The notes under the pieces: model-generated
What the model was told of the DNA's origin: nothing
Databases searched by the model: none
What the model saw: only the letters and a program-made list of their open reading frames with translations
Translations under genes and position numbers: made by a program
Shown: piece after piece, positions 21,726 to 56,298 of the stretch
Layout: each line of letters opens with the position of its first letter
Numbering within the stretch: the first letter of the stretch is position 1
From: Methanobacteriota archaeon
GTDB taxonomy: Archaea; Thermoplasmatota; Thermoplasmata; SG8-5; DAIRED01
DNA: 64,000 bases
Direction: 5' to 3'
Assembly (NCBI GenBank): GCA_043799545.1
Contig: JAZDNO010000031.1
Location: 28,633 to 92,632, forward strand

Positions 21726-22220
21726 TTATCCCTCCGGTATTATTCCTAAATCCCTGAACACTTGTTGCTTTATTTCCAATTTTTCCTTAATAGGGAGCTT
21801 AATATTATATTTAATGTCGCTGTTCTTATCTAATTGTTCTACACGATCGCGTATCTTTTTATACTCTTTCGAGAGTTTATCTTCGGGCATATCCGAATGG
21901 TCCTCCCATAATCTATTGTAATCGACGCATATATTATTGATTCTTTCCAGGTTTTTTGTAACGTACTTACTCGAATCCGGTAGTTTTATCAGTGGTATTA
22001 TAATGGTTCCGACGCATGTGATGAGCGAGAAAACTTTCATAGCCCATTGTGTGTTGTCTAGCAACATCCAACTTCCGACAGTGGTCGAAGAGGTAAATGC
22101 AACGAAGAACTTTGAAAGTGTATCCCACCTATCGTACTTATCTCCGATTCGCTGATAGTACGCTACATTGAAGTTTGCCGTTACCATGGCCTTCCATAAT
22201 TTATCACGGGTTTCGGTCAT
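21726..22220 (-). CDS. Two-TM protein resembling SLATT effectors
   Basis: Helix-2TM-helix layout (LWKAM..YYQ...KFFVAFTSS..W...FSLIT...P...YNRLWE); GGTGA SD before ATG 22220. Confidence 0.55.
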   Translation of the reverse strand: MTETRDKLWKAMVTANFNVAYYQRIGDKYDRWDTLSKFFVAFTSSTTVGSWMLLDNTQWAMKVFSLITCVGTIIIPLIKLPDSSKYVTKNLERINNICVDYNRLWEDHSDMPEDKLSKEYKKIRDRVEQLDKNSDIKYNIKLPIKEKLEIKQQVFRDLGIIPEG

Positions 22221-22447
22221 AACAACACTCACCATGTTCACGATGCTTAAACATGTATAATAATGTATCACAAATCTTCTCATATCGATATTTTTTATTA
22301 TTGTTTAGTCTAACAGTCCGAAATCCTCCTTGAGCTTGTCGAACTTGTGATCATTCGATGGAACAATCGCCCTCTGGACTATCGATCTCATTCGTCAGCG
22401 ATTCCCGCGTCCTGCATCTTGTTCTATCTATTACTCTTTTTAATTTA

Positions 22448-23467
22448 TTATAATTTTTGTCTCTGATGTTGCGTTCCACATCTGGGGCAGATAGAATCGC
22501 TGTTTAACGGTGTTCCACAATTCCAGCAAGTGCCATAGTTCTGCGGCGTTTTCGTGTGCGACATGGATATTGCGGCCACAACAATTACAATAATTACAAT
22601 TATAATGACAAGTATTAATCCAAATAAGAGTGGAGTGTATGTGGTGGATGTAGAGCTAGAGTCATCGAAACCATCATTACTATCTTCATTAGTGTTGTCG
22701 ATTGGTGTAGTATCATCGATAGGAGCGATGTAATCGTGTCTGGTTGGATCGTATGGGTAGTAATCTGAGTTATCACCTACACCATCATTATCGGAATCCC
22801 TTGTTTCGCTCGCATCAGTTGGGAATGCGTCAGCATTGTCCCCCACACCATCGTTATCTGTGTCCTTTGATTCGGTAGAATCAAGCGGGAACTCGTCAGC
22901 GTTATCGCCTACACCATCGTTATCTGAATCTGTTGTTTCAAGAGGATTGTCTGGGAATGCGTCGTCCGTGTCTGCCACACCATCGTCGTCTCTATCCCTT
23001 CCAGCAATATCTATGATATTGTCAACGGTTGTTACACTCGTAGGTTGCCAACCGAGTAGCCAATTATTAGTTTCATATGTTATTTTGGCATGGTAGTAAT
23101 GGACACCTAATGTAGTCGAAACTGGAACGCTGAAATGTATAGTGACACTCATTGAATCATCTGTTGCAAGATACTTCGGGTCCGGAGTGAACACGCCCTC
23201 ATAATAATATCCTGCAGCATACCAGTCGAACCAAATACCAATATAGGTTATTCTTATCTGCTCATTTGCACCGTTCTTAAAAGAGATAGAAATGTCCTTG
23301 GTCTCATCTTGACGCACTGGAGTATCAAAGAAGACAAATTTTATTTCCTCTATTGTTGCAGCGCTACAAATCGGTGCAAGTGCACTCACTATTAGTAAAG
23401 CCACAAAAATCAATCCTACGATTTTATTCCGTCTCTTGAAGCGGCTCATCCGATTCCCTCGAGGCAC
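22448..23467 (-). CDS. Membrane-anchored protein with thrombospondin type 3-like Ca-binding repeats and a C-terminal Zn ribbon
   Basis: Signal peptide; repeated DxDNDGVGDNADxFP; TM helix; CWNC...CPRC. Confidence 0.8.
   Translation of the reverse strand: MPRGNRMSRFKRRNKIVGLIFVALLIVSALAPICSAATIEEIKFVFFDTPVRQDETKDISISFKNGANEQIRITYIGIWFDWYAAGYYYEGVFTPDPKYLATDDSMSVTIHFSVPVSTTLGVHYYHAKITYETNNWLLGWQPTSVTTVDNIIDIAGRDRDDDGVADTDDAFPDNPLETTDSDNDGVGDNADEFPLDSTESKDTDNDGVGDNADAFPTDASETRDSDNDGVGDNSDYYPYDPTRHDYIAPIDDTTPIDNTNEDSNDGFDDSSSTSTTYTPLLFGLILVIIIVIIVIVVAAISMSHTKTPQNYGTCWNCGTPLNSDSICPRCGTQHQRQKL
22760..22995 (-). repeat. Four imperfect 66-bp (22-aa) coding tandem repeats
   Basis: ACACCATC core recurs at 22779, 22845, 22911 and 22977. 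Confidence 0.85.
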
Positions 23468-23616
23468 CCATCATCGACGCTATATAAGCCACTTTCGGAT
23501 GGGTTCAATGAGCGTTGGGATTCGTTGTGAAATAACTATTTGAATGCTGGTGGTTGCTCCTCCGAATAACCATGTGAGCCGATTCGCACAGCCGGGGAAA
23601 ATCTCTGGATTCCTAA

Positions 23617-24318
23617 TCAGTATATCGTCGCCCCTGCCAGCACGTCTATTCCGTTCTTTCCCATCGAGTACGGCTTCACCTTGCGCGAGTGCGCCGTCCG
23701 CCGCATCTTCATGACCCTTATCGCCAGCATGACCTCGTTCTTCTCCTTCAGGTCGACGTAGGACAGCACTATGACGCCGTCGGCGACGTACTCTACCAGC
23801 CCGTCGCGCGAAACCGTCGGCTGCTCCGGCCTCGCTTCGGCAGTGAATATCGCGGTCGCGCCGGCCTTCTTGATTATCTGGCAGAGCGAGAAGAGCTGCG
23901 CCCTGCACTCGCTCTCCGTCTCGAAGAGCATGTTGAGCAGCGATATCGAATCCAGGACGAGTCGCTTGGCCCCGCGGCGCAGTATCTCCGCCGGCAGCTC
24001 GTTCTTCATGCGCGCGAGCGCGGCCTTCGCGTCCGAGGGGTCGAGCTTGAAAACCGCCAGCGCCCCGCTCTGGATGTGCGGCGCGATGTCCCAGCCGTAG
24101 GCGAGCGCGTTCTTGGCTATGGCCTCCTGGTCCTCCTCCAGGCTGATGTAAATCCCCGGCTCCCCGGCCTTGACTCCGGCCATGAGGTACTGGAGGCTGA
24201 GGGTCGTCTTGCCCGTACCGCAGGACCCTATGAGGGCGACTATGTGGCCGCGCGGGACGCCCCCGTTGAGCATTTCGTCCAGCCCCTGAACTCCCGTGCT
24301 GACTTTGTCTTCCGGCAT
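23617..24318 (-). CDS. KaiC/RAD55-like RecA-superfamily ATPase, single domain, intact motifs
   Basis: STGVQGLDEML.GG, Walker A GSCGTGKTT, ISLEE, LDS, KMRRT. Confidence 0.88.
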   Translation of the reverse strand: MPEDKVSTGVQGLDEMLNGGVPRGHIVALIGSCGTGKTTLSLQYLMAGVKAGEPGIYISLEEDQEAIAKNALAYGWDIAPHIQSGALAVFKLDPSDAKAALARMKNELPAEILRRGAKRLVLDSISLLNMLFETESECRAQLFSLCQIIKKAGATAIFTAEARPEQPTVSRDGLVEYVADGVIVLSYVDLKEKNEVMLAIRVMKMRRTAHSRKVKPYSMGKNGIDVLAGATIY

Positions 24319-32434: not shown

Positions 32435-33265
32435 ATGCCGATAAGCGTCGTAATCATTGCCAGGAACGCCGAGAACTACATGCGGGATTGCCTCGACAGC
32501 CTGGTCTGGCAGTCCAGGCACCCGCACGAGGTCATCGTGGTCGACGCCGAGAGCACGGACTCCACCCAGGCCATCGTCCGGGAGCACGAGAAGGCGCACG
32601 CATTCGTCAAGCTCTACGTCGAGCCTGGCACTCGGGGGGAAGGGCGCAACTACGGAGCGTCCAAGGCGACTGGCGATATCATCGCATTTGTCGACGCGGA
32701 TGCAATATGCAACGCGCTCTGGGTCGAGGGTATGGAGAACGCCTTCGCCGCCGGTGCGGACGTGGTCGCCGGGCGCGAGGTGCGCCTGGGATACACTGGC
32801 TTCACATCGCTCAAGCGCGTCGGGATGCTTCACAAGGGAGTGGACGTAACATACCCGAGCGTGAATCTGGCCTATAAAAAATCCGTGTTCGAGGCCATAG
32901 GCGGTTTCGACCCGTGGTTCAAGGAGGCGGAGGAGGTGGACCTTAACTTCCGCGCTGTCGACGCCGGTTACAAGCTGGTGTTCTGGGACAGGGCGATAGT
33001 CTATCACCGCGCCCGCGAGACCTTCACGGGCTTCTTCAAGCAGTCGTTCTGGTACGGCTTCGGGCGCAAGGAGCTCACGCTGCGCCACGGCAAGCTCTGG
33101 TCCAAGTACGACCCGGTCCACATGGTCCAGGTCACCTCGGACGAGTCGTTCTGGAAGCTGGTGCGCCTGGGGATATCCTTCTTGGGCTTCCTTTTCTGCA
33201 AGCTGGTTGGAAAGAAGAAAGACAGCAAGGAGAGGTTCCGCGTTTCAAAGGCGAGCGAACGGTGA
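32435..33265 (+). CDS. Glycosyltransferase family 2
   Basis: ISVVI.ARN, VVDAESTD, RNYG, FVDAD, GGFD, EEVDL. Confidence 0.9.
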   Translation: MPISVVIIARNAENYMRDCLDSLVWQSRHPHEVIVVDAESTDSTQAIVREHEKAHAFVKLYVEPGTRGEGRNYGASKATGDIIAFVDADAICNALWVEGMENAFAAGADVVAGREVRLGYTGFTSLKRVGMLHKGVDVTYPSVNLAYKKSVFEAIGGFDPWFKEAEEVDLNFRAVDAGYKLVFWDRAIVYHRARETFTGFFKQSFWYGFGRKELTLRHGKLWSKYDPVHMVQVTSDESFWKLVRLGISFLGFLFCKLVGKKKDSKERFRVSKASER

Positions 33266-33272
33266 GGGGCTT

Positions 33273-34088
33273 TCAATCCTCTCCTTCCCAAATCCTCATG
33301 TAATAATCGTTGATGAGGTTCCACCCGTAATCGTACTTGCTCCAGTCGCTTACAAAATAGTTAGCGATAGCGCTGCACCTGTAGAACTCCCCCGAAACGT
33401 ATGGCTTGTTGCCGTGGTCCGGGTGCGCGTCGGCCAGCTCTGGGCGGCAACGAAGGTCCCACGCGCTTGCCAGGCCCCCTTCCGGTTTTGCATAGCACGC
33501 GTCGCTCGTCGCGTCGAACACGGCCCAGCTTCCGACCCCTCCGCTCCTGATGTAGATTTCGACGACCCCGTGCCCCCAGTTCTTCCTAGTCATGTCGAAC
33601 AAGTAAACGAGCCTCGAAGGCATTCCAGCAACTTGAGCCAGGGCGCAGAGCACCCTGGAAAGCTCCGTGCAGACGTAAGTCCCCCGCTTGATGAGTTCCT
33701 CCTCAGTCCCGCCGAAGAGCATCGTGTCCGTCGTCCAGAAACCTTTCTCCGTGCTCTTCTCCGGAGTCGGGAACTGGCTCTGGATTCCCGAGCACCATCG
33801 CGCGAGCGATTTCGCCCTGAGCTCGTCGCCGGACTGTCTAGCCACCCGTCCGACGATACCCTCAAGGTACGGGCGCCCGCCTTTTTTGTAAGTTGCCCGC
33901 AATGGCGCACAATCCGAATACAACCACCCCTCGGTCTCGGGCAAGAGCTTGACCATCTCGTCGAGCAGTACGGAATCCACGGTTCCCGGGGCGTGGAGGT
34001 CGTTCTCCAGGCTCAGGAGCTCGTCGTACGTTCCGAAACCCGTGCGCCCCTTGTAAGCTTTGAGATTCATGCCAGGTTTCATTTCCAT
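33273..34088 (-). CDS. Transglutaminase-like cysteine protease-fold protein
   Basis: Putative triad in YVCTELSR, GHGVVE and VFDAT; start moved to ATG 34088. Confidence 0.7.
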   Translation of the reverse strand: MEMKPGMNLKAYKGRTGFGTYDELLSLENDLHAPGTVDSVLLDEMVKLLPETEGWLYSDCAPLRATYKKGGRPYLEGIVGRVARQSGDELRAKSLARWCSGIQSQFPTPEKSTEKGFWTTDTMLFGGTEEELIKRGTYVCTELSRVLCALAQVAGMPSRLVYLFDMTRKNWGHGVVEIYIRSGGVGSWAVFDATSDACYAKPEGGLASAWDLRCRPELADAHPDHGNKPYVSGEFYRCSAIANYFVSDWSKYDYGWNLINDYYMRIWEGED

Positions 34089-34199
34089 GTGAGAACGAAC
34101 GGCGAATGGAATAATATAATTTGCGACGCAGGTCGCATCTCCGCCACTTTCGCCTCCCCCCACATAATCATATTTAACTCTCCAGGCGTTTGGGGGACA

Positions 34200-36095
34200 A
34201 TGCCCAAGCCCCTCTTCCCATACGAGCCGCGCGCGAACCAGCGCGAGTTCATGTCCCTCGTGAGGCGAACCCTCAAGGAGCAGTCCCACGTCGTCGTCGA
34301 GTCCGGCACGGGCTCTGGCAAGACCGTGTGCGCCCTGGTCCCCTGCGTCGAACACGCGATGAGGAAACACAAGAAGGTCGTCTACCTCACGCGCACGAAC
34401 TCCCAGCAGCGCCAGGTCATCCGCGAGTCCAGGGCAATCGCCAAGAAGGGCATGTTCTTCGCCTGCGGCGTCCAGGGCCGGCAGAACACATGCCTGATGC
34501 TCGAAACGGACCCCGAGTTCCGCGAGGGCTCCCCCGACGAGCTGGCCAAGTGGTGCGGCGAGATGAAGCGGCGCACTTTGAAGGGCAAGCCCGGCGGTTG
34601 CAATTTCTACGCCAAGCTCGTGGAGGCCGACAAGGACGCGCTCGATGCCTGGGCGAAGGAGCGCATCCCGACGGTCGAGGAGTTCGCGGCCCGCTGCCGA
34701 TCCATCGGCGTCTGCCCGTACGAGGCGAACAAGCTCCTGATTCCAGATGCGCTGGTCGTCACCGCACCGTACGTCTACTTCTTCACGCCGCAGATCGTCC
34801 GCACGCTGGTAAGCTGGATGGGCGTGACATTGGAGGACGTCATCCTCGTCGTGGACGAGGCCCACAACCTCCCGGAGTACGCCAGGGAGCTGCGCTCGGC
34901 CGAGCTCTCTTCGTGGACGCTCCGAGCCGCAGCGCGCGAAGCCGAGAAGTTCGGAGACTCCGAGCTGCTGCCGGGGACGAGCGTGGCCGACTTCTGCCGC
35001 CTCGCGGACGAAACCCTGGGCTACATCGCCGCCGAGTACGTGGCCGACGAGGACGGCCTCGTTCCGCCGAACGAGCTGGAGGGCGCTCTGATGAACGCGC
35101 TGAAGGTCACAAGCTTCAAGCTCCGCACGGTCTTCGAGAACCTCGTGGACTACGGAGAGATTGTCTCCGACTCGCGCCGCAAGGACGGCAGGCTCCCGCG
35201 CTCGTACGCGAGGGCCGTGGGCGCTTTCATGCTGTTCTGGCAGGCCCTGGATTCGGACGAGCACGTCAAGCTGGTCTACGGCGGGGACAACCCGAAGCTC
35301 GAGGCGTACGCCATGGACCCCTCGGGAGCCACGGAGGTCATCCTGTCCGCGCACGCGTCGCTTCACATGTCCGGCACGCTGACCCCGATGGAGGAGTACC
35401 GCGATTCGATAGGACTGCCGGCAGACACGCCGCTTGCCAAGTTTCCGAGCCCTTTCCCTCCGGGCAACAGGCTGATACTATACACCCCCGACGTGACGAC
35501 CCGGTTCGAGGATTTCTCCAGGGACGAGGACATCCTGGCCAGGATGAACGAATACATGAGGAGGATAATGGCGAGCGAGCCGCGCAACGCGATGGCTTTC
35601 TTCCCAAGCTTCAACGTCATGGCGGGCTTCTCGGGCCTCAAGAATGGGCTAGGGCGCGAGTTCTTCGAGGAGAGGAAGGGGATGCCTCAGCAGGAGCTGA
35701 TGGGCGAAGTCCAGCGCTTCAAACTTTCGGGCGGAGGCTTGATGTTCGCGGTGGAGGGCGGGCGCCTCAGCGAGGGCATCGATTTTCCGGGAAAGGAACT
35801 GGAAATCGCCTTCCTGGTCGGGATACCGTATCCCAAGCCGAGCGCCAAGCAGAAATCCCTGCTCCGCTACTACGACAACAAATTCGGAAAGGGGTGGGAG
35901 TACACGGTCAAAGCCCCCACGGCCAGGAAGATGCTCCAGAGCATAGGCCGACTGATACGGACGGAGACCGACAGGGGCGTCGCCGTCATACTAGACAGGC
36001 GGGCGACCCAGTTCTCGGACTACCTCGACGGCCTGCGCGAGGCTCGCGACCTGCCAGCGGAGGTCGCGGCCTTCTTCGCGAATCCTAAGGAATAA
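34200..36095 (+). CDS. xpd: XPD/Rad3-family Fe-S DNA helicase
   Basis: YEPRANQ, ESGTGSGKT, Fe-S cysteines, VVDEAHN, MSGTL, SEGIDF, QSIGRLIR; start ATG 34200. Confidence 0.92.
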   Translation: MPKPLFPYEPRANQREFMSLVRRTLKEQSHVVVESGTGSGKTVCALVPCVEHAMRKHKKVVYLTRTNSQQRQVIRESRAIAKKGMFFACGVQGRQNTCLMLETDPEFREGSPDELAKWCGEMKRRTLKGKPGGCNFYAKLVEADKDALDAWAKERIPTVEEFAARCRSIGVCPYEANKLLIPDALVVTAPYVYFFTPQIVRTLVSWMGVTLEDVILVVDEAHNLPEYARELRSAELSSWTLRAAAREAEKFGDSELLPGTSVADFCRLADETLGYIAAEYVADEDGLVPPNELEGALMNALKVTSFKLRTVFENLVDYGEIVSDSRRKDGRLPRSYARAVGAFMLFWQALDSDEHVKLVYGGDNPKLEAYAMDPSGATEVILSAHASLHMSGTLTPMEEYRDSIGLPADTPLAKFPSPFPPGNRLILYTPDVTTRFEDFSRDEDILARMNEYMRRIMASEPRNAMAFFPSFNVMAGFSGLKNGLGREFFEERKGMPQQELMGEVQRFKLSGGGLMFAVEGGRLSEGIDFPGKELEIAFLVGIPYPKPSAKQKSLLRYYDNKFGKGWEYTVKAPTARKMLQSIGRLIRTETDRGVAVILDRRATQFSDYLDGLREARDLPAEVAAFFANPKE

Positions 36096-36145
36096 ATAGG
36101 CAGTGCCCGATACCACCTGTGAGGACAAGCCGGAGGATACGAGGA

Positions 36146-37138
36146 ATGGCCAGGCGGACTAGGCAGCAAACCGAGAAGAGCCAAGCGCTTGACGAGGAGG
36201 TCAAGCCAGCAGCCTCGGCGTCCGAGCCCGCAGAGGCGTTAGCGTCGCCGTCCCAAACCAACAAGCCGGTCTCCCACGGCGAAATGCTTCTCCACTGGGT
36301 TACAGAGGGTTACGAGATAGGGCAGCTGGTCGGCGACCTGCGGGGCAAGAAGAACATCGAACCGTATTTCGAGGAATTCCAGAGGCGAGTCAAGAGGGCA
36401 GCGGAGATCATAGCCGAAATCGAGGTGCTCGGCACCGTACCACCAGTTCGCGTGGAAGCGCTTAGGGCGATTGCAAAGGAACCCGCACGTCTCGCTGAAC
36501 TGGAGAAGGAACTATCAGACTGGAGGGATGGCCCAAAGCTGAAGGAGATGAAGGCCGAATTCATGAGCCTCAATATCAAGGGATTCGAGGACGCAGCCCG
36601 AGTGATTCAGGGTAAGTTCTCGGATCCTTCCAAGCGTGGCGAAATCGAGAAAGACATACACGATTTGAAGCACAAAATAAAAGAACGGTTCTTCGAACAG
36701 GAATTCGCAGTACATCTGGAGCCAGTGCCGGAAACGTCTGCACACCCCCTGGCCGAGACGATTTTCATCATCCACAGGGACGGAACGCTGCTCTCAGTCA
36801 AGAGCAAGCAGTCGAAGGAGCAGGTGGACAAAAAGGCTCTCAGCCACATGGTGATAGAGATTCGCGAGAGGATGTCAAAGGGCTCGAAAGAATGCTTCGA
36901 TGCAGACGGCTCGCGCGTCATCATGGAGAACGGCCAGCACGTGTGCGTGGCCGTGGCCTTCAAGGGCGATGAGCTCCCGATAATGCGCAAGGTCATAGAC
37001 AAGGTCGTTCAGATAATGGAGCGCAAGAACGCCGCCGTTTTCTCGAACTGGACCGGCGACCGGGCAAGGCTCATAGACATGGAGCGGTACCCGACGGCCC
37101 TGTTCCAGGCGCTGGAGCAGATGGAGAAGAAGGAGTAG
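36146..37138 (+). CDS. Helical-repeat protein with a C-terminal longin/roadblock-like domain (tentative)
   Basis: Coiled/helical centre, then ETIFIIHRDGTLLS...; GGAGG SD. Confidence 0.6.
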   Translation: MARRTRQQTEKSQALDEEVKPAASASEPAEALASPSQTNKPVSHGEMLLHWVTEGYEIGQLVGDLRGKKNIEPYFEEFQRRVKRAAEIIAEIEVLGTVPPVRVEALRAIAKEPARLAELEKELSDWRDGPKLKEMKAEFMSLNIKGFEDAARVIQGKFSDPSKRGEIEKDIHDLKHKIKERFFEQEFAVHLEPVPETSAHPLAETIFIIHRDGTLLSVKSKQSKEQVDKKALSHMVIEIRERMSKGSKECFDADGSRVIMENGQHVCVAVAFKGDELPIMRKVIDKVVQIMERKNAAVFSNWTGDRARLIDMERYPTALFQALEQMEKKE

Positions 37139-37209: not shown

Positions 37210-37911
37210 TTATTCCGATATAACTGGCGTAGCCACGAATTTCCCATCGCGGTACATCAGCCTGTGCCAGCCGTGCGTGTGGCGGGTGCGCCTCATCTTC
37301 AGGCACCTGATGCGGAGCTGCATGTCCGACTCCCCGACCTCGTGGAGCTTCAGGTGAAGAATGCCGTCCGCGAGGTAATCCTCGTCGTGGTTGACGAGCG
37401 AATCCGTACCGTGCGGGACCTCGCTGATGAGGAAGATGTTGGCCTTCAGCTCCTTGAGGAACCGCATGAACTGGAACAGCTCGACGCGCGGGTGCTTCAG
37501 GCTCGCGAGGGCGTACAGCGCCGCGAGGGAGTCTATGACCACAATGTCGAACCCGTTGCCCTTCACCCTCTGCTCGACGTACTTGGAAAGAATCTCCAGC
37601 CAGTTCTTGCCGTACTCCTCGTCCCGGTGCTCCATCCTAATCTTGCCAACGTCGACCAGGAAGACGTCCAGGTCGTCGAGGTTGCCCATCCCCAGGTCCT
37701 CCATCGCCCCCCTGATGTTCTCGTACCCCTCCTCCAGGGAGATGTAGAGGCCCTTCATCCCAGCCTCCTTGGCGTTGTTGTAAATCATGCTGAATGCAAG
37801 CGATGTCTTCATTGTTCCCGGGGTTCCGCAGATGAGAACCACATGGCCGTCCGGTATGCCCCCGTCTATGACCTCGTCGAAACCGTCCACGAACGTCTGA
37901 ATTCGCTCCAT
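37210..37911 (-). CDS. KaiC/RAD55-like ATPase
   Basis: GFDEVIDGG, Walker A variant GTPGTMKTS, ISLEE, IDSL, KMRRT. Confidence 0.85.
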   Translation of the reverse strand: MERIQTFVDGFDEVIDGGIPDGHVVLICGTPGTMKTSLAFSMIYNNAKEAGMKGLYISLEEGYENIRGAMEDLGMGNLDDLDVFLVDVGKIRMEHRDEEYGKNWLEILSKYVEQRVKGNGFDIVVIDSLAALYALASLKHPRVELFQFMRFLKELKANIFLISEVPHGTDSLVNHDEDYLADGILHLKLHEVGESDMQLRIRCLKMRRTRHTHGWHRLMYRDGKFVATPVISE

Positions 37912-49848: not shown

Positions 49849-52284
49849 ATGAATGGGGTGCCGATGCCATCCTGGGATGTCCGGCTCTTATCGGTTTCAT
49901 ACACCCGCGCGGGCGACGTCACCGTCCAGCTGTTCGGCAGGACGCGTGACGGTCGCTCGATAACGGCGCTGCACCAGGGGTTCAAGCCCTATTTCTACAT
50001 CTCAGAGCCGGATAATGGAGTCATACAGCGCCTGAAGCAAGACCAGGACGTCCTAAAGGTCGAATCGGCGAAGCTCTTCGTTGACGGGGCGTACAGGCAC
50101 TGCGCCAAAGTCACAGTGAAGTATCCGTGGACAGTGCCAGACTACCGAAGAAGGTACCCATCGAGCTTCTTCCTCGCTGCGGACATTCCATTCTCGCTGC
50201 GGTTCATGTACGACATGGGCATCGAGAGCTGCGTCAGGATAACCGGTGAACCAACAGAGCGTGGAAACTACACAACGGAACTGGTTGTCCAAGCCGAGAA
50301 GTTCGAGCCTTGCGAGGCGTTCAAGCCGAGGCTGAAGATACTCTCGTTCGATATCGAGAACAGCATCAAGGAGAAGCACCTGCTGGTCCTCGGCGCAGCC
50401 ATAATGGACACGGACGGCTCCGTCAGGACAGAGCACATCCCGGGGCCGGAGCCGGAAATCATCAAGGGCTTCGTCGAGCTGGTGCGCAGGGAGGACCCTG
50501 ACGTCATCACCGGCTACAACATCGACGGCTACGACATCCCCTACGTCATGGAAAGGGCGAAGGCGAACGGGATATCCTCGGTGCCGCTAGGGCGTGACGG
50601 GGGAGTGGCTAACTCAGTCTCCGACCGTTTCTGGCGAGTGCACGGGCGCATAGTTGCCGACGCCTGGTGGAACGCAAAGAGGGAGCTCAGGCCCAAGCAG
50701 GAGACGCTCGATGCCGTGGCGAGGCTCGTTCTTGGCGAAGGAAAGGCCGACGTCGACCCGTCGAACATAGACGAGGAGTGGAGGCAGGACAGCGCCAACG
50801 TCACCAAGTACTGCGTCAGGGACGCGGAGCTCGCGCTGCGGATACTGGACAAGATTTCCGTGCTCCAGAAGATGATGGACCTCGCGACTGTATCCATGCT
50901 CCCGCTGGACGATGTCTTGAACGGGCGCACCTCGGTTCTCATAGATTCCATCCTGATACGCGAGGCCGACAAGCTGGGAATAGGCGTTATGATGAACAGG
51001 CACGAGCGCCGCGAGACACAGATTGAGGGCGGTTACGTCCATACCATTGAGCCCGGAATCTATCCGTGGGTGTGCGTTCTCGATTTCAAGAGCATGTATC
51101 CCAGCCTGATAATCTCCAAGAACATCTGCTTCACGACGCTCAGCAAGGACGGCGCGAACGTCAGCCCCACTGGGGAGAAATTCCTCGCACGGGAGGTGCG
51201 CGAGGGCGTTGTCCCGAAAGTCCTCGGAGGCCTGATGGCCAGGCGCGACGAGATAAAGAAGAGCATGAAGCAGGCCAAAACTCCGGAGGAGAAGGCCTAC
51301 TACGATGGGCTGCAGCAGGCGGTTAAAGTCCTGATGAACGCCTTCTACGGGGTCTTCGCGTCGGCGTTCTACCGTTTCACCAACCCGAAAATCGGGGCGA
51401 GCATCACAGCCTTCGCCAGGGAGAACACCAAGGGCATCATCTCATCCCTGGAGGCAGAAGGCCACAAGGTCATCTACGGAGATACGGACTCCGTTTTCGT
51501 GCAGTCCCCGACGCCGGAGCTGGAAGCTTCGGTTGAGTTCGGCAAATCGATATCTGCGAAGCACACGAAGGAGGGAGCGACCCTCGAGTTCGAGAAGCTC
51601 CTGAACCCTCTTTTCTCCCACGGCGCAAAGAAGCGGTACGTCGGGAAGGTCGTCTGGCCGGATGAAACCATCGTCGTGCGGGGCTACGAGATACGGCGCA
51701 CGGACGCCTTCGACATGCAGAGCGAGACGCTGGAGGCTGTCTTCGGAAAGATTCTGGACAACGACCCCGACGGAGCGGTCGAAACCGCAGTGAATGCCGT
51801 CCGGGACTGCCTGGACGGAAAGGTCTCCATCGAAGCCCTCGTCGTCTCAAGGACTTGCCGCGAGGAGAGCTCATACAAGGACCCGGACACGCAGATGACT
51901 GTCCAGGCCGCGCGGAAGCTCACTGCGATGGGATACGAGTTCGTGCCGGGGATGAAGGTCTCCTGGATAGTCGTCGACGGTCGAAAAAGCCCAGCGGAGG
52001 TCGAGCCCTACGTCAGCGGGAGGGTGTTCGACAGGAAGCCCGACTGGGAGTACTATGCCAGGCGCACGGCGATGACCCTCGCCAGGGCGACGGAGTACTT
52101 CGGCTGGAACGTCAGCGATTTGCTCGCCGGGAAGAAGGGGGCGAAGCAGTCGGACCTCTTCAACGCGGACTTCGAGGGGCCTCAGTCCAACGGCGGCAAC
52201 TCCGACAAGCCGAAGGCTAAACCAGGGAAGAAGGACGTGGTCAAGAAGACGGACAAGGCGCTCAAGATCGAGGATTTTTTATAG
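49849..52284 (+). CDS. polB: Family B DNA polymerase
   Basis: Exo motifs FDIE, NIDGYD, YCVRD; pol motifs DFKSMYPS, K.LMNAFYG, YGDTDS, KKRY; no intein. Confidence 0.95.
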   Translation: MNGVPMPSWDVRLLSVSYTRAGDVTVQLFGRTRDGRSITALHQGFKPYFYISEPDNGVIQRLKQDQDVLKVESAKLFVDGAYRHCAKVTVKYPWTVPDYRRRYPSSFFLAADIPFSLRFMYDMGIESCVRITGEPTERGNYTTELVVQAEKFEPCEAFKPRLKILSFDIENSIKEKHLLVLGAAIMDTDGSVRTEHIPGPEPEIIKGFVELVRREDPDVITGYNIDGYDIPYVMERAKANGISSVPLGRDGGVANSVSDRFWRVHGRIVADAWWNAKRELRPKQETLDAVARLVLGEGKADVDPSNIDEEWRQDSANVTKYCVRDAELALRILDKISVLQKMMDLATVSMLPLDDVLNGRTSVLIDSILIREADKLGIGVMMNRHERRETQIEGGYVHTIEPGIYPWVCVLDFKSMYPSLIISKNICFTTLSKDGANVSPTGEKFLAREVREGVVPKVLGGLMARRDEIKKSMKQAKTPEEKAYYDGLQQAVKVLMNAFYGVFASAFYRFTNPKIGASITAFARENTKGIISSLEAEGHKVIYGDTDSVFVQSPTPELEASVEFGKSISAKHTKEGATLEFEKLLNPLFSHGAKKRYVGKVVWPDETIVVRGYEIRRTDAFDMQSETLEAVFGKILDNDPDGAVETAVNAVRDCLDGKVSIEALVVSRTCREESSYKDPDTQMTVQAARKLTAMGYEFVPGMKVSWIVVDGRKSPAEVEPYVSGRVFDRKPDWEYYARRTAMTLARATEYFGWNVSDLLAGKKGAKQSDLFNADFEGPQSNGGNSDKPKAKPGKKDVVKKTDKALKIEDFL

Positions 52285-52353
52285 GTTCTTGACCTCCTCG
52301 TGAAATCCGCCACACAACATATTTATCACCGCTGCCTTATACTCCGGCTGGAG

Positions 52354-54498
52354 ATGGCGTTGGCAGAGCGCATCGAGTTCCCGAAGGGGATTACAACCAA
52401 GAGCACCGCCGGCGGTGCGGAGGTCATCAGGAAGCTCCTAATCGGCCTCAAGCGGTTCTCGTTCACCGGCTACGTCCAGACCATCCTCAAGACCGAGGGC
52501 TCGCAGAGGGACGGGTACATTGTGATCAAGGAGGGCACGCCCGTCTTCGCGCTCCACCAGGTCGAGACGGCGGATGGCTCCCAGGGGGCGCATGGCCAGA
52601 TGGCTCTCAGGAAGGCCTGGGAGGATTCGTACAACCCGCAGACGGTGATAGATGTCCACGGCGGGGTTTCGATAGATTCCATAATCTCGTCCTACCCCGA
52701 GGGCAAGATAGACTCCACCCAGGCGGTGTCGAAACAGCGCGTGGTCGTGGGGCTGAAGTGGGGGCAGGGTGAGCAGGCGGAGCTCGCGGGACTGAAGGCG
52801 AAGCTGGAGCACTACCGTTCCGATGGATACGTCGTCGATGACATCGAGGCCGCGCTGGAACGCGGCGCGGAGGAGTCCAAGCTGGTCATAGCGCAGTTCG
52901 AGGCGAACCTGACGAAGATAAAGATGCTCGGCGACCTGCTGGACCTGACGGACGCGCCGGAGCTGGCGGACGACGTGGCGCGCGTAAGGCGGAGGTTCAA
53001 GGACCCGATGAGGATAGTGGCCATCGAGGCGGAGGTCGAACTCCTGCGCGAGAAGGCGGAGCAACTGGAGAAGCGCAGGTCGGAGATAGTCGACGTCAAG
53101 GGCCAGGCCAGGAAGGAGCGCCCGGAGGTGTTTCTCGACGGGGACTTCCGGTGCCCTATATGCGGATTCCCGATGAACCCGGCGCACCCGTGCCCCAGGT
53201 GCGGGGCCGTGCAGGCGCACAAATCGCCATCTTCGGGCGAATCGGAGAAGCCCCGCCAGTCTCACGAGTCCGCGAACCTGAGTCCCGGATTGACGTTCGA
53301 CACCTTCGTCGTGGGCGAGAGCAACAGGTTCGCGCACGCAGCTGGCACGGCGATTGCCGGCATGCTGCAGGAGGCGTACAATCCCCTCTTCGTATGGAGC
53401 GGGACCGGGCTGGGCAAGACCCACCTGCTGAACGCGATAGGGAACAAGGTCATAGAGACGCACCCGGACAAGCGCGTCCTTTACATAGGCACGCAGAGGT
53501 TCGTGAAGGAGATGCTGGATTCCGTCGAGCATGGGGCAATAGAGGATTTCAGGGAGCGGTACAAATCGCTGGACCTGCTTTTGCTGGACGACGTGCATTT
53601 CCTCGCCCAGTCCGAGTCGCTCCAGGACGAGCTGTTCAACATCTTCAACGAGCTCAAGAACCGCAACAGGTACATAGTGCTGGCGAGCGACAGGCCGCCC
53701 ACGGAAATCAAGGACCTCGCGGAGCGCCTGATATCCAGATTCTCCTCGGGGCTGGTGACGGACATACTTCCTCCGGAAATTGAGACTCGAATCGCCATCC
53801 TGAGGCGCAAGGCCGAGGACCGCAAGCTCGACCTCGACGACGCGGCGCTGATGCACATCGCGACCCGCTTCACGAACAACATCCGGAGCCTGGAGGGGGC
53901 GCTGACTAAGGTGAGCGCTTACTCGTCGCTGCTCGGCGCCGATGTCACCATGGACACTGTGAAGGAGGTGCTGAAGGACGAGGGACAGTCCCAATCCGCC
54001 GGAGAGCCGCACCAGGCCGCGCAGTCGCACGCGCAGGTTTCCCTCAAGCCCGCTCACAGCTACCTCGTCGAGGAGGAGCGCCCCGAGCGTTGCTTCGAGC
54101 TCTTCGGCGAGTACGTGAAACAAGGCTACGGGGGGCTGGCAATCACGAGGACGAACCCTACCAGGGTGAAGGAGAGCCACAACCTGGGCGAAGCACAGGT
54201 GCTGTGGCTCACGGACCGGGAGGGAGGAGAGGGGGAGAAGGTGGCGCCGGTCCTCGAGAGAATCATCTACAAGATCGAGGAGCTGCTCGCGAAGGAGGGG
54301 AACGGAATCGTCCTCCTGGATGGCGTGGAATACCTGATAAGCAGCAACAACTTCGAATCCGTCCTGAAGTTCCTCAGGCGGTTGATAGACGACGTCTCGG
54401 AGAGCAAGAGCGTCTTCATGATGTCACTCACGCCAGGGACTTTGGGCGAGAAGGAGCAGAAGATACTCAAGCGGGAGATGGAGCTAATCTCCGGCTAG
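52354..54498 (+). CDS. Multidomain protein: DUF2226-like N-terminus (tentative), helical module, Zn ribbon, DnaA-type AAA+ domain III, DUF835; no DnaA domain IV
   Basis: TFDTFVVGESNRFA, YNPLF, GTGLGKTHLL, LLLDDVHFL, SDRPP, RLISRF, NIRSLEGAL; C-terminal GLAITR/VLWLT/LLDGVEYLI. Confidence 0.85.
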   Translation: MALAERIEFPKGITTKSTAGGAEVIRKLLIGLKRFSFTGYVQTILKTEGSQRDGYIVIKEGTPVFALHQVETADGSQGAHGQMALRKAWEDSYNPQTVIDVHGGVSIDSIISSYPEGKIDSTQAVSKQRVVVGLKWGQGEQAELAGLKAKLEHYRSDGYVVDDIEAALERGAEESKLVIAQFEANLTKIKMLGDLLDLTDAPELADDVARVRRRFKDPMRIVAIEAEVELLREKAEQLEKRRSEIVDVKGQARKERPEVFLDGDFRCPICGFPMNPAHPCPRCGAVQAHKSPSSGESEKPRQSHESANLSPGLTFDTFVVGESNRFAHAAGTAIAGMLQEAYNPLFVWSGTGLGKTHLLNAIGNKVIETHPDKRVLYIGTQRFVKEMLDSVEHGAIEDFRERYKSLDLLLLDDVHFLAQSESLQDELFNIFNELKNRNRYIVLASDRPPTEIKDLAERLISRFSSGLVTDILPPEIETRIAILRRKAEDRKLDLDDAALMHIATRFTNNIRSLEGALTKVSAYSSLLGADVTMDTVKEVLKDEGQSQSAGEPHQAAQSHAQVSLKPAHSYLVEEERPERCFELFGEYVKQGYGGLAITRTNPTRVKESHNLGEAQVLWLTDREGGEGEKVAPVLERIIYKIEELLAKEGNGIVLLDGVEYLISSNNFESVLKFLRRLIDDVSESKSVFMMSLTPGTLGEKEQKILKREMELISG

Positions 54499-56135
54499 GG
54501 AGAGTCGGCGCCTTCCAGCTCTGTCATGGCGTCCCTGAAAAGGCGTATAGAGTGCAGCGCCGTGCCGTAGTCGCCGTCCTTGATCTGGTTGTTCGCGTCC
54601 TTGAGGTGGCCGACGGGCTTGGTGATGTTGACGTTCATCATCTTCACCTCGAGGAGCTTCGTCTTCGCCTTGCGCATCTCGTTCGCTATGTACGCCGGAA
54701 GTATCTTGTTGAAGTGCTCGCTGCATTGCTCGGAGAGCATCTTCGCGGTGTCCCAGTCCTTGCGTACTGTGGCCTTGAGGCAATCCTCGTAGAGGGTGCG
54801 CCCCTCTCCGAGGTCTATCCTGAGCGCCGCCGCGTCCTCTATCACTGTCTTGATGGAGGACAGCCCTTTCTGGGCGCCGAAGTATTCCGAGGCGATCGAA
54901 GTCAGGGTGCCTCTCGCCAGGTCGAGCGCCGTCACGGCCTCTGCCCACTTCCTCTCCCCCGAGGCGGTCCTCGCCTTCGCAATATGGGCGGATATCCCGG
55001 AAACGTCGATACCGCTGGCCTGCACGTCCTTCGCCTGCTTCTCCAGAGTCACGACCTCCTTTGTGATGAACCCTGTGAATGAGCGCTCCACCTCGCCCTC
55101 CCCCTGGGAGACTAGGTCCACGGCCAGCTTGAGGTTCCGCTCGCGGCCGGCAGTGACCGCCCTGTTGATGAGGTCCTTCGCCTTCGTGACGTCGACGTCC
55201 AGCCGCTTTGCGAGCGAGAAATCGTCCTTTATCTTCGAGACGAGGGCCGGCAGTTGCCTCATGGCGTCCCCGCCTGCAGCGGGCCTCGGTGCGCCTGGCT
55301 GCGCCACTTGCGCCTGGATGGGCCTCGGGACCGCGGGCATAGGCTGTATTTTCTGGGGCTGGACCTGGGTCGGGGTCTTCTGCGCCGTCGGCTGTAATGG
55401 CTTTTGCGCTGCGGAGGGCGCAACGCCCTCTTTCTGGGCGCGCAACTGCTTCATCCTGTCCACGAAGCTCATCGGCACCTGCTCGACCGGTGCGGGGGCG
55501 GCCGGCTTGGGCTCTGCGGCTTTCGGGGGTTTGGGGATGGCCGCATCGACGGAATGGGTTGCCCGCGGGTTAGGCTCGGGCTCAGTCTTCGCCGGAGCAT
55601 GGACTGGAGGCTGAACCTGAGGAGCTTTCGGAGCATCAGTCTTGGGGGGCTCGGCAGGCGCTGGCGATGCGGGATCTTCTTCCACGGCCTCGAATGACGC
55701 GCCGCATCCGGGGCAGACCGTGGTGTTCGCATCCATCAGGGCGTTGCACAGGGGGCACTGGTACATCTGCGCTTCGGCGAACGTCACGCCGCACTTCTGG
55801 CAGGTGTCCGACGTGGAGGGGACGTCCGCGCCGCATTCCGGGCATTGGAAGACCTCCATGACCACGGTTCCCGAGCCGTCCCTGGATGGCGTCGACGAAG
55901 GCGCGGTGCCAATCCCCATCAGCCCTTTCAGGGCGTTGTCCTTCTCCCCCTTTTCGAGTTCTGCCAGTATCTTATCCACGTTGTCCTTGTTATCGAGCCT
56001 GACATCTGCAGAATCGCTCGGGACGTCGAAAAGCGCCAGGTCGGTGCCGCAGGACGGACAGTTGCGGGTGCCAGCGGGAACCTGTGCGTCGCAAATTGGG
56101 CACAGCCTCCCGGTCGCCTGAGCACCTTCCGCCAT
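54495..56135 (-). CDS. Protein with three double Zn ribbons, a Pro/Ala/Gln linker and four helical repeats
   Basis: CPIC..CPSC, CPEC..CQKC, CPLC..CPGC; recurring xDV/IDV/IDL/VNI helical units; start ATG 56135. Confidence 0.75.
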   Translation of the reverse strand: MAEGAQATGRLCPICDAQVPAGTRNCPSCGTDLALFDVPSDSADVRLDNKDNVDKILAELEKGEKDNALKGLMGIGTAPSSTPSRDGSGTVVMEVFQCPECGADVPSTSDTCQKCGVTFAEAQMYQCPLCNALMDANTTVCPGCGASFEAVEEDPASPAPAEPPKTDAPKAPQVQPPVHAPAKTEPEPNPRATHSVDAAIPKPPKAAEPKPAAPAPVEQVPMSFVDRMKQLRAQKEGVAPSAAQKPLQPTAQKTPTQVQPQKIQPMPAVPRPIQAQVAQPGAPRPAAGGDAMRQLPALVSKIKDDFSLAKRLDVDVTKAKDLINRAVTAGRERNLKLAVDLVSQGEGEVERSFTGFITKEVVTLEKQAKDVQASGIDVSGISAHIAKARTASGERKWAEAVTALDLARGTLTSIASEYFGAQKGLSSIKTVIEDAAALRIDLGEGRTLYEDCLKATVRKDWDTAKMLSEQCSEHFNKILPAYIANEMRKAKTKLLEVKMMNVNITKPVGHLKDANNQIKDGDYGTALHSIRLFRDAMTELEGADSP

Positions 56136-56298
56136 TATTGCACCTCTATACAACTTCTTAACATATTTCTAAGATAAATAAGTATCGTAAACTGGCCGGG
56201 CGACCACGGGCGCTCCGGCGGGGACGAGAGCCCGTTAAAAAGCCTTATATATATACTGCGCGATACATCATCTGATAATCTGGCGAGGTTGAAGAAAG

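Follow-up and report, generated by a model that had tools for sequence, protein, structure and literature searches.

A DnaA-type AAA+ domain fused to DUF835 in archaea of the phylum Thermoplasmatota

The gene and its domains

The window is the whole stretch of DNA analysed, 64,000 nt from a Methanobacteriota archaeon (Thermoplasmatota, Thermoplasmata, SG8-5, DAIRED01; assembly GCA_043799545.1, contig JAZDNO010000031.1, positions 28,633–92,632 of the forward strand). The gene under study occupies positions 52354–54498 of the window and encodes a protein of 714 aa, in which a DnaA-type AAA+ ATPase domain is followed by a C-terminal DUF835 domain. DnaA is the textbook marker that separates bacterial from archaeal and eukaryotic replication initiation. 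The source genome measures 2.06 Mb, at 94% completeness and 0.85% contamination, and the contig from which the window comes is at least 92 kb long. The genome has a single Bac_DnaA match and two Orc1/Cdc6 genes. Initiation equipment of the Orc1/Cdc6 type, which an earlier reading made from the letters alone (the sequence-only reading) had expected in the host, is thus present. The gene and its parts are as follows.

52317–52328, plus strand: A/T-rich TATA-like element ACATATTTATCA, candidate promoter of the gene itself; read from the sequence.
52354–54498, plus strand: whole gene, 714 aa, with N module, zinc ribbon (Zn ribbon), DnaA-type AAA+ domain and DUF835; open reading frame (ORF) list and profile matches.
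52381–52698, plus strand: N-terminal alpha/beta domain, probably PatA_N/DUF2226-like (residues 10–115); predicted local distance difference test (pLDDT) of 82–93 in the AlphaFold2 (AF2) model, ESM Atlas shape search.
52768–53097, plus strand: helical module with a conserved W..GY.V..LE motif (residues 139–248); AF2 helices.
53152–53202, plus strand: Zn ribbon CPICG-x8-CPRC with four Cys (residues 267–283); sequence pattern, low AF2 confidence.
53269–53982, plus strand: DnaA domain III, comprising AAA+ core, initiator-specific helical insert and lid (residues 306–543); Pfam, NCBIfam, alignment, Foldseek.
53401–53421, plus strand: Walker A GTGLGKT (residues 350–356); G, G, G, K and T invariant in 46/46.
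53725–53742, plus strand: box VII RLISRF (R458, arginine finger R462); aligns with E. coli R281 and R285.
54046–54489, plus strand: DUF835, an inactivated KaiC-like domain (residues 565–712); Pfam PF05763, 99 bits.

An in-frame GTG is present at 52300, upstream of the ATG at 52354. The ATG is preferred, as the nearest homologues share the MALA... start. The centre of ACATATTTATCA lies about 32 nt 5' of the ATG, a position which suggests that the gene may have a promoter of its own.

Pfam Bac_DnaA (PF00308) matches residues 312–470 over the entire profile (E 1.3e-59, 201 bits), and DUF835 (PF05763) matches residues 575–709 (E 2.2e-28, 99.2 bits, gathering cut-off 33.1). A weak Hda_lid match is also present. 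Bac_DnaA_C (PF08299) and DnaA_N give no Pfam match at E≤0.1. The NCBIfam equivalog model for DnaA, TIGR00362, scores 326.2 bits, below its cut-off of 343.9; the alignment is confined to profile positions 83–343 of 437 and thus covers domain III but leaves out domain IV. No helix-turn-helix (HTH) of domain IV is therefore detected, either by Pfam at that threshold or by TIGR00362, whose alignment ends at position 343. In the AF2 model (alignment of 46 homologues, mean pLDDT 82) the lid is followed by a disordered linker at 546–560 and then by the alpha/beta domain of DUF835.

In DnaA, helicase recruitment and DnaA-box recognition are carried by domains I and IV. Domain III is the part found here. 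The motifs GTGLGKT (Walker A), LLLDDVH (Walker B), RLISRF (box VII) and NIRSLEGAL (sensor II), from which the sequence-only reading had recognised it, are all present, and its limits (about 53269–53982) correspond to the 53275–53980 proposed at that time. In a sequence search of the PDB, residues 309–542 align with B. subtilis DnaA without gaps over 234 residues (258 bits, about 51% identity). Solved Hda chains reach about 40 bits, and no Orc1/Cdc6 chain is among the PDB sequence matches listed for the protein. The proposed true DnaA type of the domain is upheld by these scores, and grouping with Orc1/Cdc6 is not seen. Foldseek superposes the AF2 model on 8bv3_A with a template modelling (TM) score of 0.90 by target, root mean square deviation (rmsd) of 2.3 Å and 51% identity. 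The initiator-specific insert is retained as helices 380–392 and 396–404, between strands 2 and 3. The fold of DnaA and this insert are thus kept without any indel. Exhaustive search of 1.8 billion representative proteins with the AAA+ domain places bacterial DnaAs of about 450 aa at 232–256 bits (45–51% identity) and distant archaeal members of the family at 232–260 bits, on a par with the bacterial proteins.

Other AAA+ families fit less well. Membership of Hda is not reached (TIGR03420, 112 bits, cut-off 194.8). Neither the Cdc6 lid (PF22703) nor the Cdc6 winged helix (PF09079) is among the Pfam matches of the protein; PF09079 matches two other loci of the source genome only. IstB_IS21 scores 33 bits over the same stretch on which Bac_DnaA scores 201 bits, and the NCBIfam IstB and DnaC models remain far below their cut-offs.

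Residue conservation was counted over 46 archaeal family members, unless stated otherwise. Walker A and the DD of Walker B are kept in 46/46, the Asp of sensor I in 45/46, R458 in 43/46, the arginine finger R462 in 41/46 (Lys in two more) and the Arg of sensor II in 45/45. Column by column, 35 archaeal members were compared with 31 canonical DnaAs. All catalytic and inter-protomer residues are identical between the two sets, and the sole fixed difference is a Gly to Ser exchange just before the P-loop. The residues of DnaA for ATP binding, ATP hydrolysis and the arginine finger are kept almost without exception.

Positions that contact single-stranded DNA (ssDNA) are under relaxed constraint in the archaeal family. 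The equivalent of E. coli V211 is I/V in 29 of the 31 canonical DnaAs and R, L, K, V or another residue in the archaeal set. The K243 equivalent is K/R in 29/31 canonical DnaAs versus 22/35 archaeal proteins, and basic (K/R) in 25 of the 46 family members. By alignment, E. coli K243 and R245 correspond to S420 and S422 of the window protein. The sequence-only reading had noted LAQSESLQ here in place of the FANKERSQ of E. coli; this is correct for the window gene, and in the family the loss of the basic residue is a trait of the clade to which this gene belongs.

DUF835 is the best conserved domain of the protein. Against distant members, mean identity falls from 52% in DUF835 and 50% in the AAA+ core to 34% in the N domain and 24% in the helical module. 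The P-loop pattern G-x4-GK[ST] occurs in the DUF835 of none of the 46 members. Galperin et al. 2018 (PMC5847659) treat DUF835, under the label iKaiC, as one of the output domains found in response regulators of archaea. The absence of a P-loop throughout and this label both agree with the earlier description of the domain as an inactive KaiC-like one. Alignment of DUF835 with a KaiC-like protein of the window by hhalign is weak (probability 15%, E 0.0018) and topologically sensible. The source genome contains about 36 KaiC-like and 15 DUF835 matches, a very large expansion for 2.06 Mb. On its contig C12, DUF835 stands at the end of an ORF of 1662 aa.

The N-terminal domain (residues 10–115) is assigned to a PatA_N/DUF2226-like type with moderate confidence. 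In the ESM Atlas its shape falls beside a DUF2226 cluster (TM 0.40 by query, 0.69 by target, 111 residues, rmsd 2.5 Å), PatA_N (DUF4388) clusters at TM about 0.42, and also a DUF835-carrying cluster of about 368 aa from Thermoplasmatota. Pfam DUF2226 gives weak matches in 4/46 members (best E 0.0031); other weak matches in the N region are scattered. Fold search of the N-terminal 250 residues against the PDB gives nothing reliable (Foldseek, best E 6.6e-3, TM 0.13), and VIA-align wide finds only generic helical matches of Z <7 in the PDB for this region. The helical module recurs in source-genome proteins encoded next to KaiC-like genes, one of them inside the window (36119–37138, beside the KaiC-like gene 37210–37911). 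The Zn ribbon is found in only 17/46 members. The description of a Zn ribbon and a helical module ahead of the ATPase domain therefore holds for the window gene; the Zn ribbon is not general in the family.

Distribution, modularity and origin

Word-index search yields about 77 homologue clusters with full-length architecture. Those named by source are all from Thermoplasmata or Thermoplasmatota. Annotations among them include 'DnaA/Hda family protein' and 'chromosomal replication initiator protein DnaA', so that such fusions already bear automatic names in these genomes, as the sequence-only reading had supposed. In an even draw of 201 genomes of the class, 126 have a match, and about 100 of these carry the AAA+-DUF835 form; they come from most families and include single-contig genomes. 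The families of the sample are designated here by f and a number. Four families that hold many complete genomes have no match (0/20, 0/7, 0/23 and 0/20), and the family of proteins may have escaped notice for this reason. In family f18 the match extends only from the AAA+ domain onwards. In the rest of the phylum, relatives occur in 12/151 sampled genomes; one genome of another class (G277) carries five genes of DnaA-type AAA+ proteins. Among sequencing runs, none is listed as holding the gene, and no RNA holder is listed either. No integrase, transposase or defence hallmarks are seen around the gene, and PADLOC returns only a weak generic P-loop match. Since about 100 genomes, closed ones included, have the same fusion, the contig is not a bacterial-archaeal chimera. 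The family is real, widespread and vertically inherited within Thermoplasmatota.

Composition of the protein varies between lineages. A relative of 1423 aa from another class (L088:4024–8295, genome G325) shares the N module (hhalign 99.8%, E 1.5e-29), also has a long insert, the DnaA AAA+ domain and the lid, and ends in zinc ribbons at the place of DUF835 in the window protein; proteins of 1.2–1.5 kaa with this layout occur in other classes. The representative library also contains proteins of 1084–1420 aa with a C-terminal double zinc ribbon (DZR), whose AAA+ domains are placed close to the archaeal clade in the free trees (support 81). The zinc-ribbon module, encoded by a separate neighbour gene in the window, thus appears fused in the lineages of 1084–1423 aa. 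The syntenic orthologue in family f6, beside the DZR gene, has 452 aa; its N module, Zn ribbon and DUF835 align with the window protein, and the alignment skips exactly the AAA+ cassette (hhalign E 7e-74). Family f26 has an ORF of 335 aa with DUF835 and a weak lid-like remnant. From the 1423-aa, f6 and f26 relatives, the DnaA cassette would be insertable into, and removable from, a scaffold of N module and DUF835 paired with DZR. Judged by these sequences, the conserved core consists of the N module and the AAA+ domain, with a C-terminal module that differs by lineage: DUF835 in this class, zinc ribbons in another. Domain IV is absent, as the sequence-only reading had stated; its replacement by DUF835, stated there as well, oversimplifies the family.

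Phylogeny was inferred from 111 AAA+ domains, namely those of 35 archaeal DUF835 proteins, 31 canonical DnaAs, domain-IV-less tandem and single forms, and E. coli Hda. All fall within the DnaA radiation except E. coli Hda, which lies far outside on a branch of 2.7 substitutions per site. In a free quick tree, 28–29 archaeal rows form one clade (Shimodaira–Hasegawa-like approximate likelihood ratio test 94). Two fast-evolving groups, that of the window included, are placed elsewhere, so that the archaeal family is in three pieces. A tree in which all 36 archaeal rows are held as one clade is 31 log-likelihood units better than the free tree (approximately unbiased test, p 0.83). Because the constrained tree is the better one, the split into three pieces is treated as an artefact of the search or of long branches. 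A single origin of the archaeal family is thus the better solution and is not rejected. Deep branches of the tree are without support, and proteins of the representative library are without names. We infer that an ancestor within the phylum acquired a bacterial DnaA domain III cassette once. Transfer from bacteria into that ancestor is the direction preferred, because the domain is universal in bacteria and in archaea is known only from this phylum.

Proteins of about 650 aa with two tandem Bac_DnaA domains and no domain IV are also present in the data (P0082, P0087, P0090, P0098, P0105, P0117, and many rows of the exhaustive search). Those named by source are from Gemmatimonadota; P0117 carries a C-terminal PatA_N/DUF4388 domain. 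They appear to form an uncharacterised DnaA-derived family of their own. Their C-terminal domains fall near the archaeal clade with weak support. As closest relatives of the archaeal family they were considered and rejected, the high scores being the sum of two tandem DnaA domains. A DnaA AAA+ domain without domain IV is also found in a bacterial protein of 854 aa (L055:6001–11573), whose gene is in an operon with that of a GAF-GAF histidine kinase and runs into its start. This seems to be a further case of DnaA domain III put to use in signalling.

Neighbouring genes and the Orc1/Cdc6 background

The gene is flanked by the two genes below.

49849–52284, plus strand: polB, family B DNA polymerase, ending 69 nt upstream of the gene; Pfam DNA_pol_B, 1.5e-54.
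54495–56153, minus strand: gene of the DZR protein, convergent, with stop codons overlapping by 4 nt; Pfam DZR, 3.5e-12.

The DZR protein has 552 aa. Double zinc ribbons at its N-terminus are joined by a P/A/Q-rich linker to a conserved C-terminal domain of about 250 aa. The latter is made of four or five helical repeats and belongs to no known family. Feature search of the C-terminus in the ESM Atlas gives unnamed Thermoplasmatota clusters and an EzrA-like lead below threshold (score 0.81). Spacing between the gene and DZR was compared by hand, from coordinates, over the 201 genomes of the class. About 67 genomes, from 15 families, have the two genes convergent and no more than about 100 nt apart; in four further genomes the distance is up to about 1 kb. 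The two genes are not adjacent in families f11, f18 and f28. Complex prediction for the full 714-aa protein with the C-terminal domain of DZR gives a score of 0.00 against a mark of 0.32, which speaks neither for nor against binding.

A gene for a KaiC-like single-domain ATPase follows DZR divergently in 11/20 context genomes and at three further loci. The KaiC-like protein of this cluster is 70–86% identical across families. Its gene is followed by that of a protein of about 370–430 aa with no assigned family, and phosphoglycerate kinase (PGK) is often encoded upstream. By tblastn cross-matches, the protein of 370–430 aa and the DZR protein have a short zinc-ribbon-like stretch in common. The source genome has these two genes together on another contig (C10:161171–164878, with the KaiC-like gene at 162671–163378). 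Large CARDB and PKD surface proteins are encoded close by in several loci. The connection to KaiC-type signalling, proposed from the sequence alone, gains contextual support from the KaiC-like gene in many of these clusters and from the helical module beside KaiC-like genes.

The distance to polB, earlier given as about 70 nt, measures 69 nt. The order polB–gene–DZR recurs in relatives at 75% and 65% identity and nowhere else. Linkage to polB as a conserved feature of the family was rejected, being confined to the window's own lineage; as a sign of the coupling to replication that the sequence-only reading had considered possible, it is weak evidence. The polB product of the relative at 75% identity (L091:2415–5954) has 1179 aa with intein/LAGLIDADG matches; that of the window has 811 aa and no intein.

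DUF835 also occurs next to Orc1/Cdc6. In the source genome a standalone DUF835 gene of 188 aa begins 18 nt after the second Orc1/Cdc6 gene, which scores 267 bits with TIGR02928 (cut-off 181). The pair is at C22:118347–120200 (Orc1/Cdc6 at 535–1812 and DUF835 at 1830–2396 of the extracted locus). Between the 188-aa protein and the fused DUF835, identity is 33%. At 18/30 loci, from seven families, the orthologous Orc1/Cdc6 gene likewise has a DUF835 ORF directly downstream. One genome of this sample, G098, is marked as unpublished, and nothing stated here depends on it. By the DnaA fusion and by this operon, DUF835 is tied twice to ATPases of the initiator clade of AAA+ proteins. An Orc1/Cdc6 gene shares the contig of the DnaA-DUF835 gene, at a distance of 36–110 kb, in families f7, f11 and f24, which may be chance or inherited synteny.

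GC content of the region is even. Elsewhere in the window, from a background of about 0.60, it dips to 0.46 at 22001–24000 and to 0.39 at 62001–64000. The first dip spans a KaiC-like gene (about 23635–24303). Both segments may be islands or foreign DNA. An ORF for an XPD/Rad3-like helicase of 962 aa, with a TTG start, is located at 33207–36095; about 330 N-terminal residues without assignment precede its DEAD_2 domain.

Function, known systems and significance

There is an even chance that the protein is an ATP-gated, self-assembling switch within KaiC-like signalling and not a sequence-specific initiator of replication. ATP-bound protomers would join head to tail through R462 into open oligomers of the DnaA type, which ATP hydrolysis would dissolve. 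DUF835 and the N module would relay this nucleotide-gated state of assembly to partner proteins, of which the convergently encoded DZR protein and the highly conserved single-domain KaiC-like ATPase are the likely ones. The protein would thus act as an ATP-dependent switch or scaffold in an archaeal KaiC-like signalling network. ATPase activity, oligomerisation and all partners are predicted from the conserved residues and gene context; filament formation and a role in the cell cycle are putative too.

Several observations weigh against this proposal. Domain III is about 50% identical to that of Firmicute DnaA and without indels, more than a generic assembly switch would be expected to require; with such unusual conservation, the domain may still have an activity on DNA that is specific to DnaA. 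The K243 equivalent is basic in over half of the family, and the Zn ribbon is present in 17/46. Gene adjacency, convergent above all, is no proof of physical interaction. The KaiC-like orthologue of the source genome is encoded on another contig and not beside the 714-aa gene. The similarity of DUF835 to KaiC is weakly recovered by hhalign and depends mainly on published annotation.

A factor linked to replication is rather unlikely. As such, the protein would still act on DNA or on the replication machinery, for instance as an auxiliary ATPase that melts or remodels origins or as an Hda-like regulator, working with Orc1/Cdc6, and DUF835 would provide the link to KaiC-like control of the cell cycle. 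The near-canonical domain III with its initiator-specific insert speaks for this role, as do the basic K243 equivalents and Zn ribbons just counted, the pairing of an Orc1/Cdc6 paralogue with standalone DUF835 in 18/30 loci of seven families, and polB directly upstream in the window's lineage. It is opposed by the profile searches (Pfam, NCBIfam), which detect no domain IV or other DNA-reading domain, by ssDNA-contact positions that are relaxed in the family and lost in the window's clade, and by the absence of the polB adjacency outside family f1. The conserved neighbours are DZR, KaiC-like and PGK genes, none of them for replication; syntenic orthologues without the AAA+ cassette exist; and many families, including those with most closed genomes, lack the gene and yet replicate by Orc1/Cdc6. 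A related and broader idea, held to be improbable, is that DUF835 is a dedicated partner of initiator-clade AAA+ ATPases and forms with KaiC-like ATPases an unrecognised layer of control over initiation or the cell cycle. If true, an acquired DnaA module would still act at origins or on ssDNA in an archaeon that uses Orc1/Cdc6.

An ATP-driven role outside KaiC-like signalling is doubtful. The protein would then be, for example, a chaperone or remodeller for DZR or for an envelope or cytoskeletal structure, and DUF835 would merely oligomerise. Helical repeats of the DZR C-terminus outside known families, its EzrA-like lead and the large CARDB and PKD surface proteins near several loci are compatible with such a role; the DZR leads, that of EzrA included, are below the level of reliability, the KaiC-like gene of the cluster is strongly conserved, and AAA+ proteins of the DnaA clade are not known as unfoldases or remodellers. 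An artefact or foreign DNA, be it an assembly chimera or a gene of a mobile element or defence island (IstB-like, or of the viral 'DnaA-like' type), would explain why the AAA+ domain is as close to bacterial DnaA as bacterial DnaAs are to one another, and weak IstB_IS21 and PADLOC mad8 P-loop matches point the same way. The same fused ORF in about 100 sampled genomes, single-contig ones among them, even GC, archaeal neighbours on both sides, stable synteny, one copy per genome and the lack of integrase, transposase and defence hallmarks around the gene stand against it, and by distribution and synteny this explanation is effectively excluded.

The switch proposed above has partial counterparts among known proteins. 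Bacterial DnaA (TIGR00362; PDB 8bv3 and 8btg from B. subtilis, 3r8f from A. aeolicus) has the complete domain III in common with the 714-aa protein. The latter differs in the lack of domain I, the domain II linker and the domain IV HTH (score 326 versus a cut-off of 344), in a host that has Orc1/Cdc6, in flanks formed by the PatA_N-like N module and DUF835, and in relaxed ssDNA contacts. Recognition of DnaA boxes is not expected, because the domain IV HTH is lacking. Hda/HdaA, which inactivates DnaA-ATP, is likewise a DnaA-family AAA+ protein without domain IV, thought to be regulatory and not to read DNA sequence; it is much more distant kin (112 bits versus a cut-off of 195), and its short architecture is not shared by the 714-aa protein. 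Orc1/Cdc6 proteins are also AAA+ ATPases of the initiator clade; the 714-aa protein has no matches to the Cdc6 lid or winged helix.

In bacterial DnaA paralogues without domain IV, domain III has likewise been reused outside the initiator, sometimes beside signalling domains. These have other architectures and hosts, none carries DUF835, and in the tree they are separate from the archaeal clade. To our knowledge, the only 'DnaA-like' label commonly used in archaea until now is that of an AAA+ ATPase of fuselloviruses (SSV). That protein (arCOG07960; PMC4158269) is virus-associated and distantly DnaA-like, and is set apart by its description; genes of the present family are chromosomal, in single copy and in conserved synteny, and their products share about 50% identity with true DnaA. 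Output proteins with DUF835, such as REC-DUF835 and PAS-DUF835 (PMC5847659), share the C-terminal DUF835 without a P-loop; their upstream module is a sensor or receiver, whereas here it is a DnaA-type AAA+ ATPase, predicted to be active. The combination of DnaA with DUF835 is not listed in PMC5847659.

No description of the family was found in the literature on DUF835 with DnaA or on DnaA in Thermoplasmata, Thermoplasmatota and Aciduliprofundum, a scope beyond which Makarova et al. 2017 (mBio) lies. A functional description, of which the sequence-only reading likewise knew none, was not found in the literature on DUF835 and DnaA in these archaea. DnaA paralogues without domain IV (Hda, bacterial tandem and kinase-linked forms) and DUF835 output proteins are already known.

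In many families of a single archaeal phylum, an intact ATPase core of DnaA is maintained under strong constraint, apparently for long, without the DNA-reading domain and combined with KaiC-like signalling modules of archaea. For such genes the automatic name 'chromosomal replication initiator protein DnaA' is wrong. The family is a natural experiment on what domain III of DnaA does alone. Together with the operon of Orc1/Cdc6 and DUF835, it provides a testable handle on how the KaiC-like/DUF835 network might reach the core machinery.

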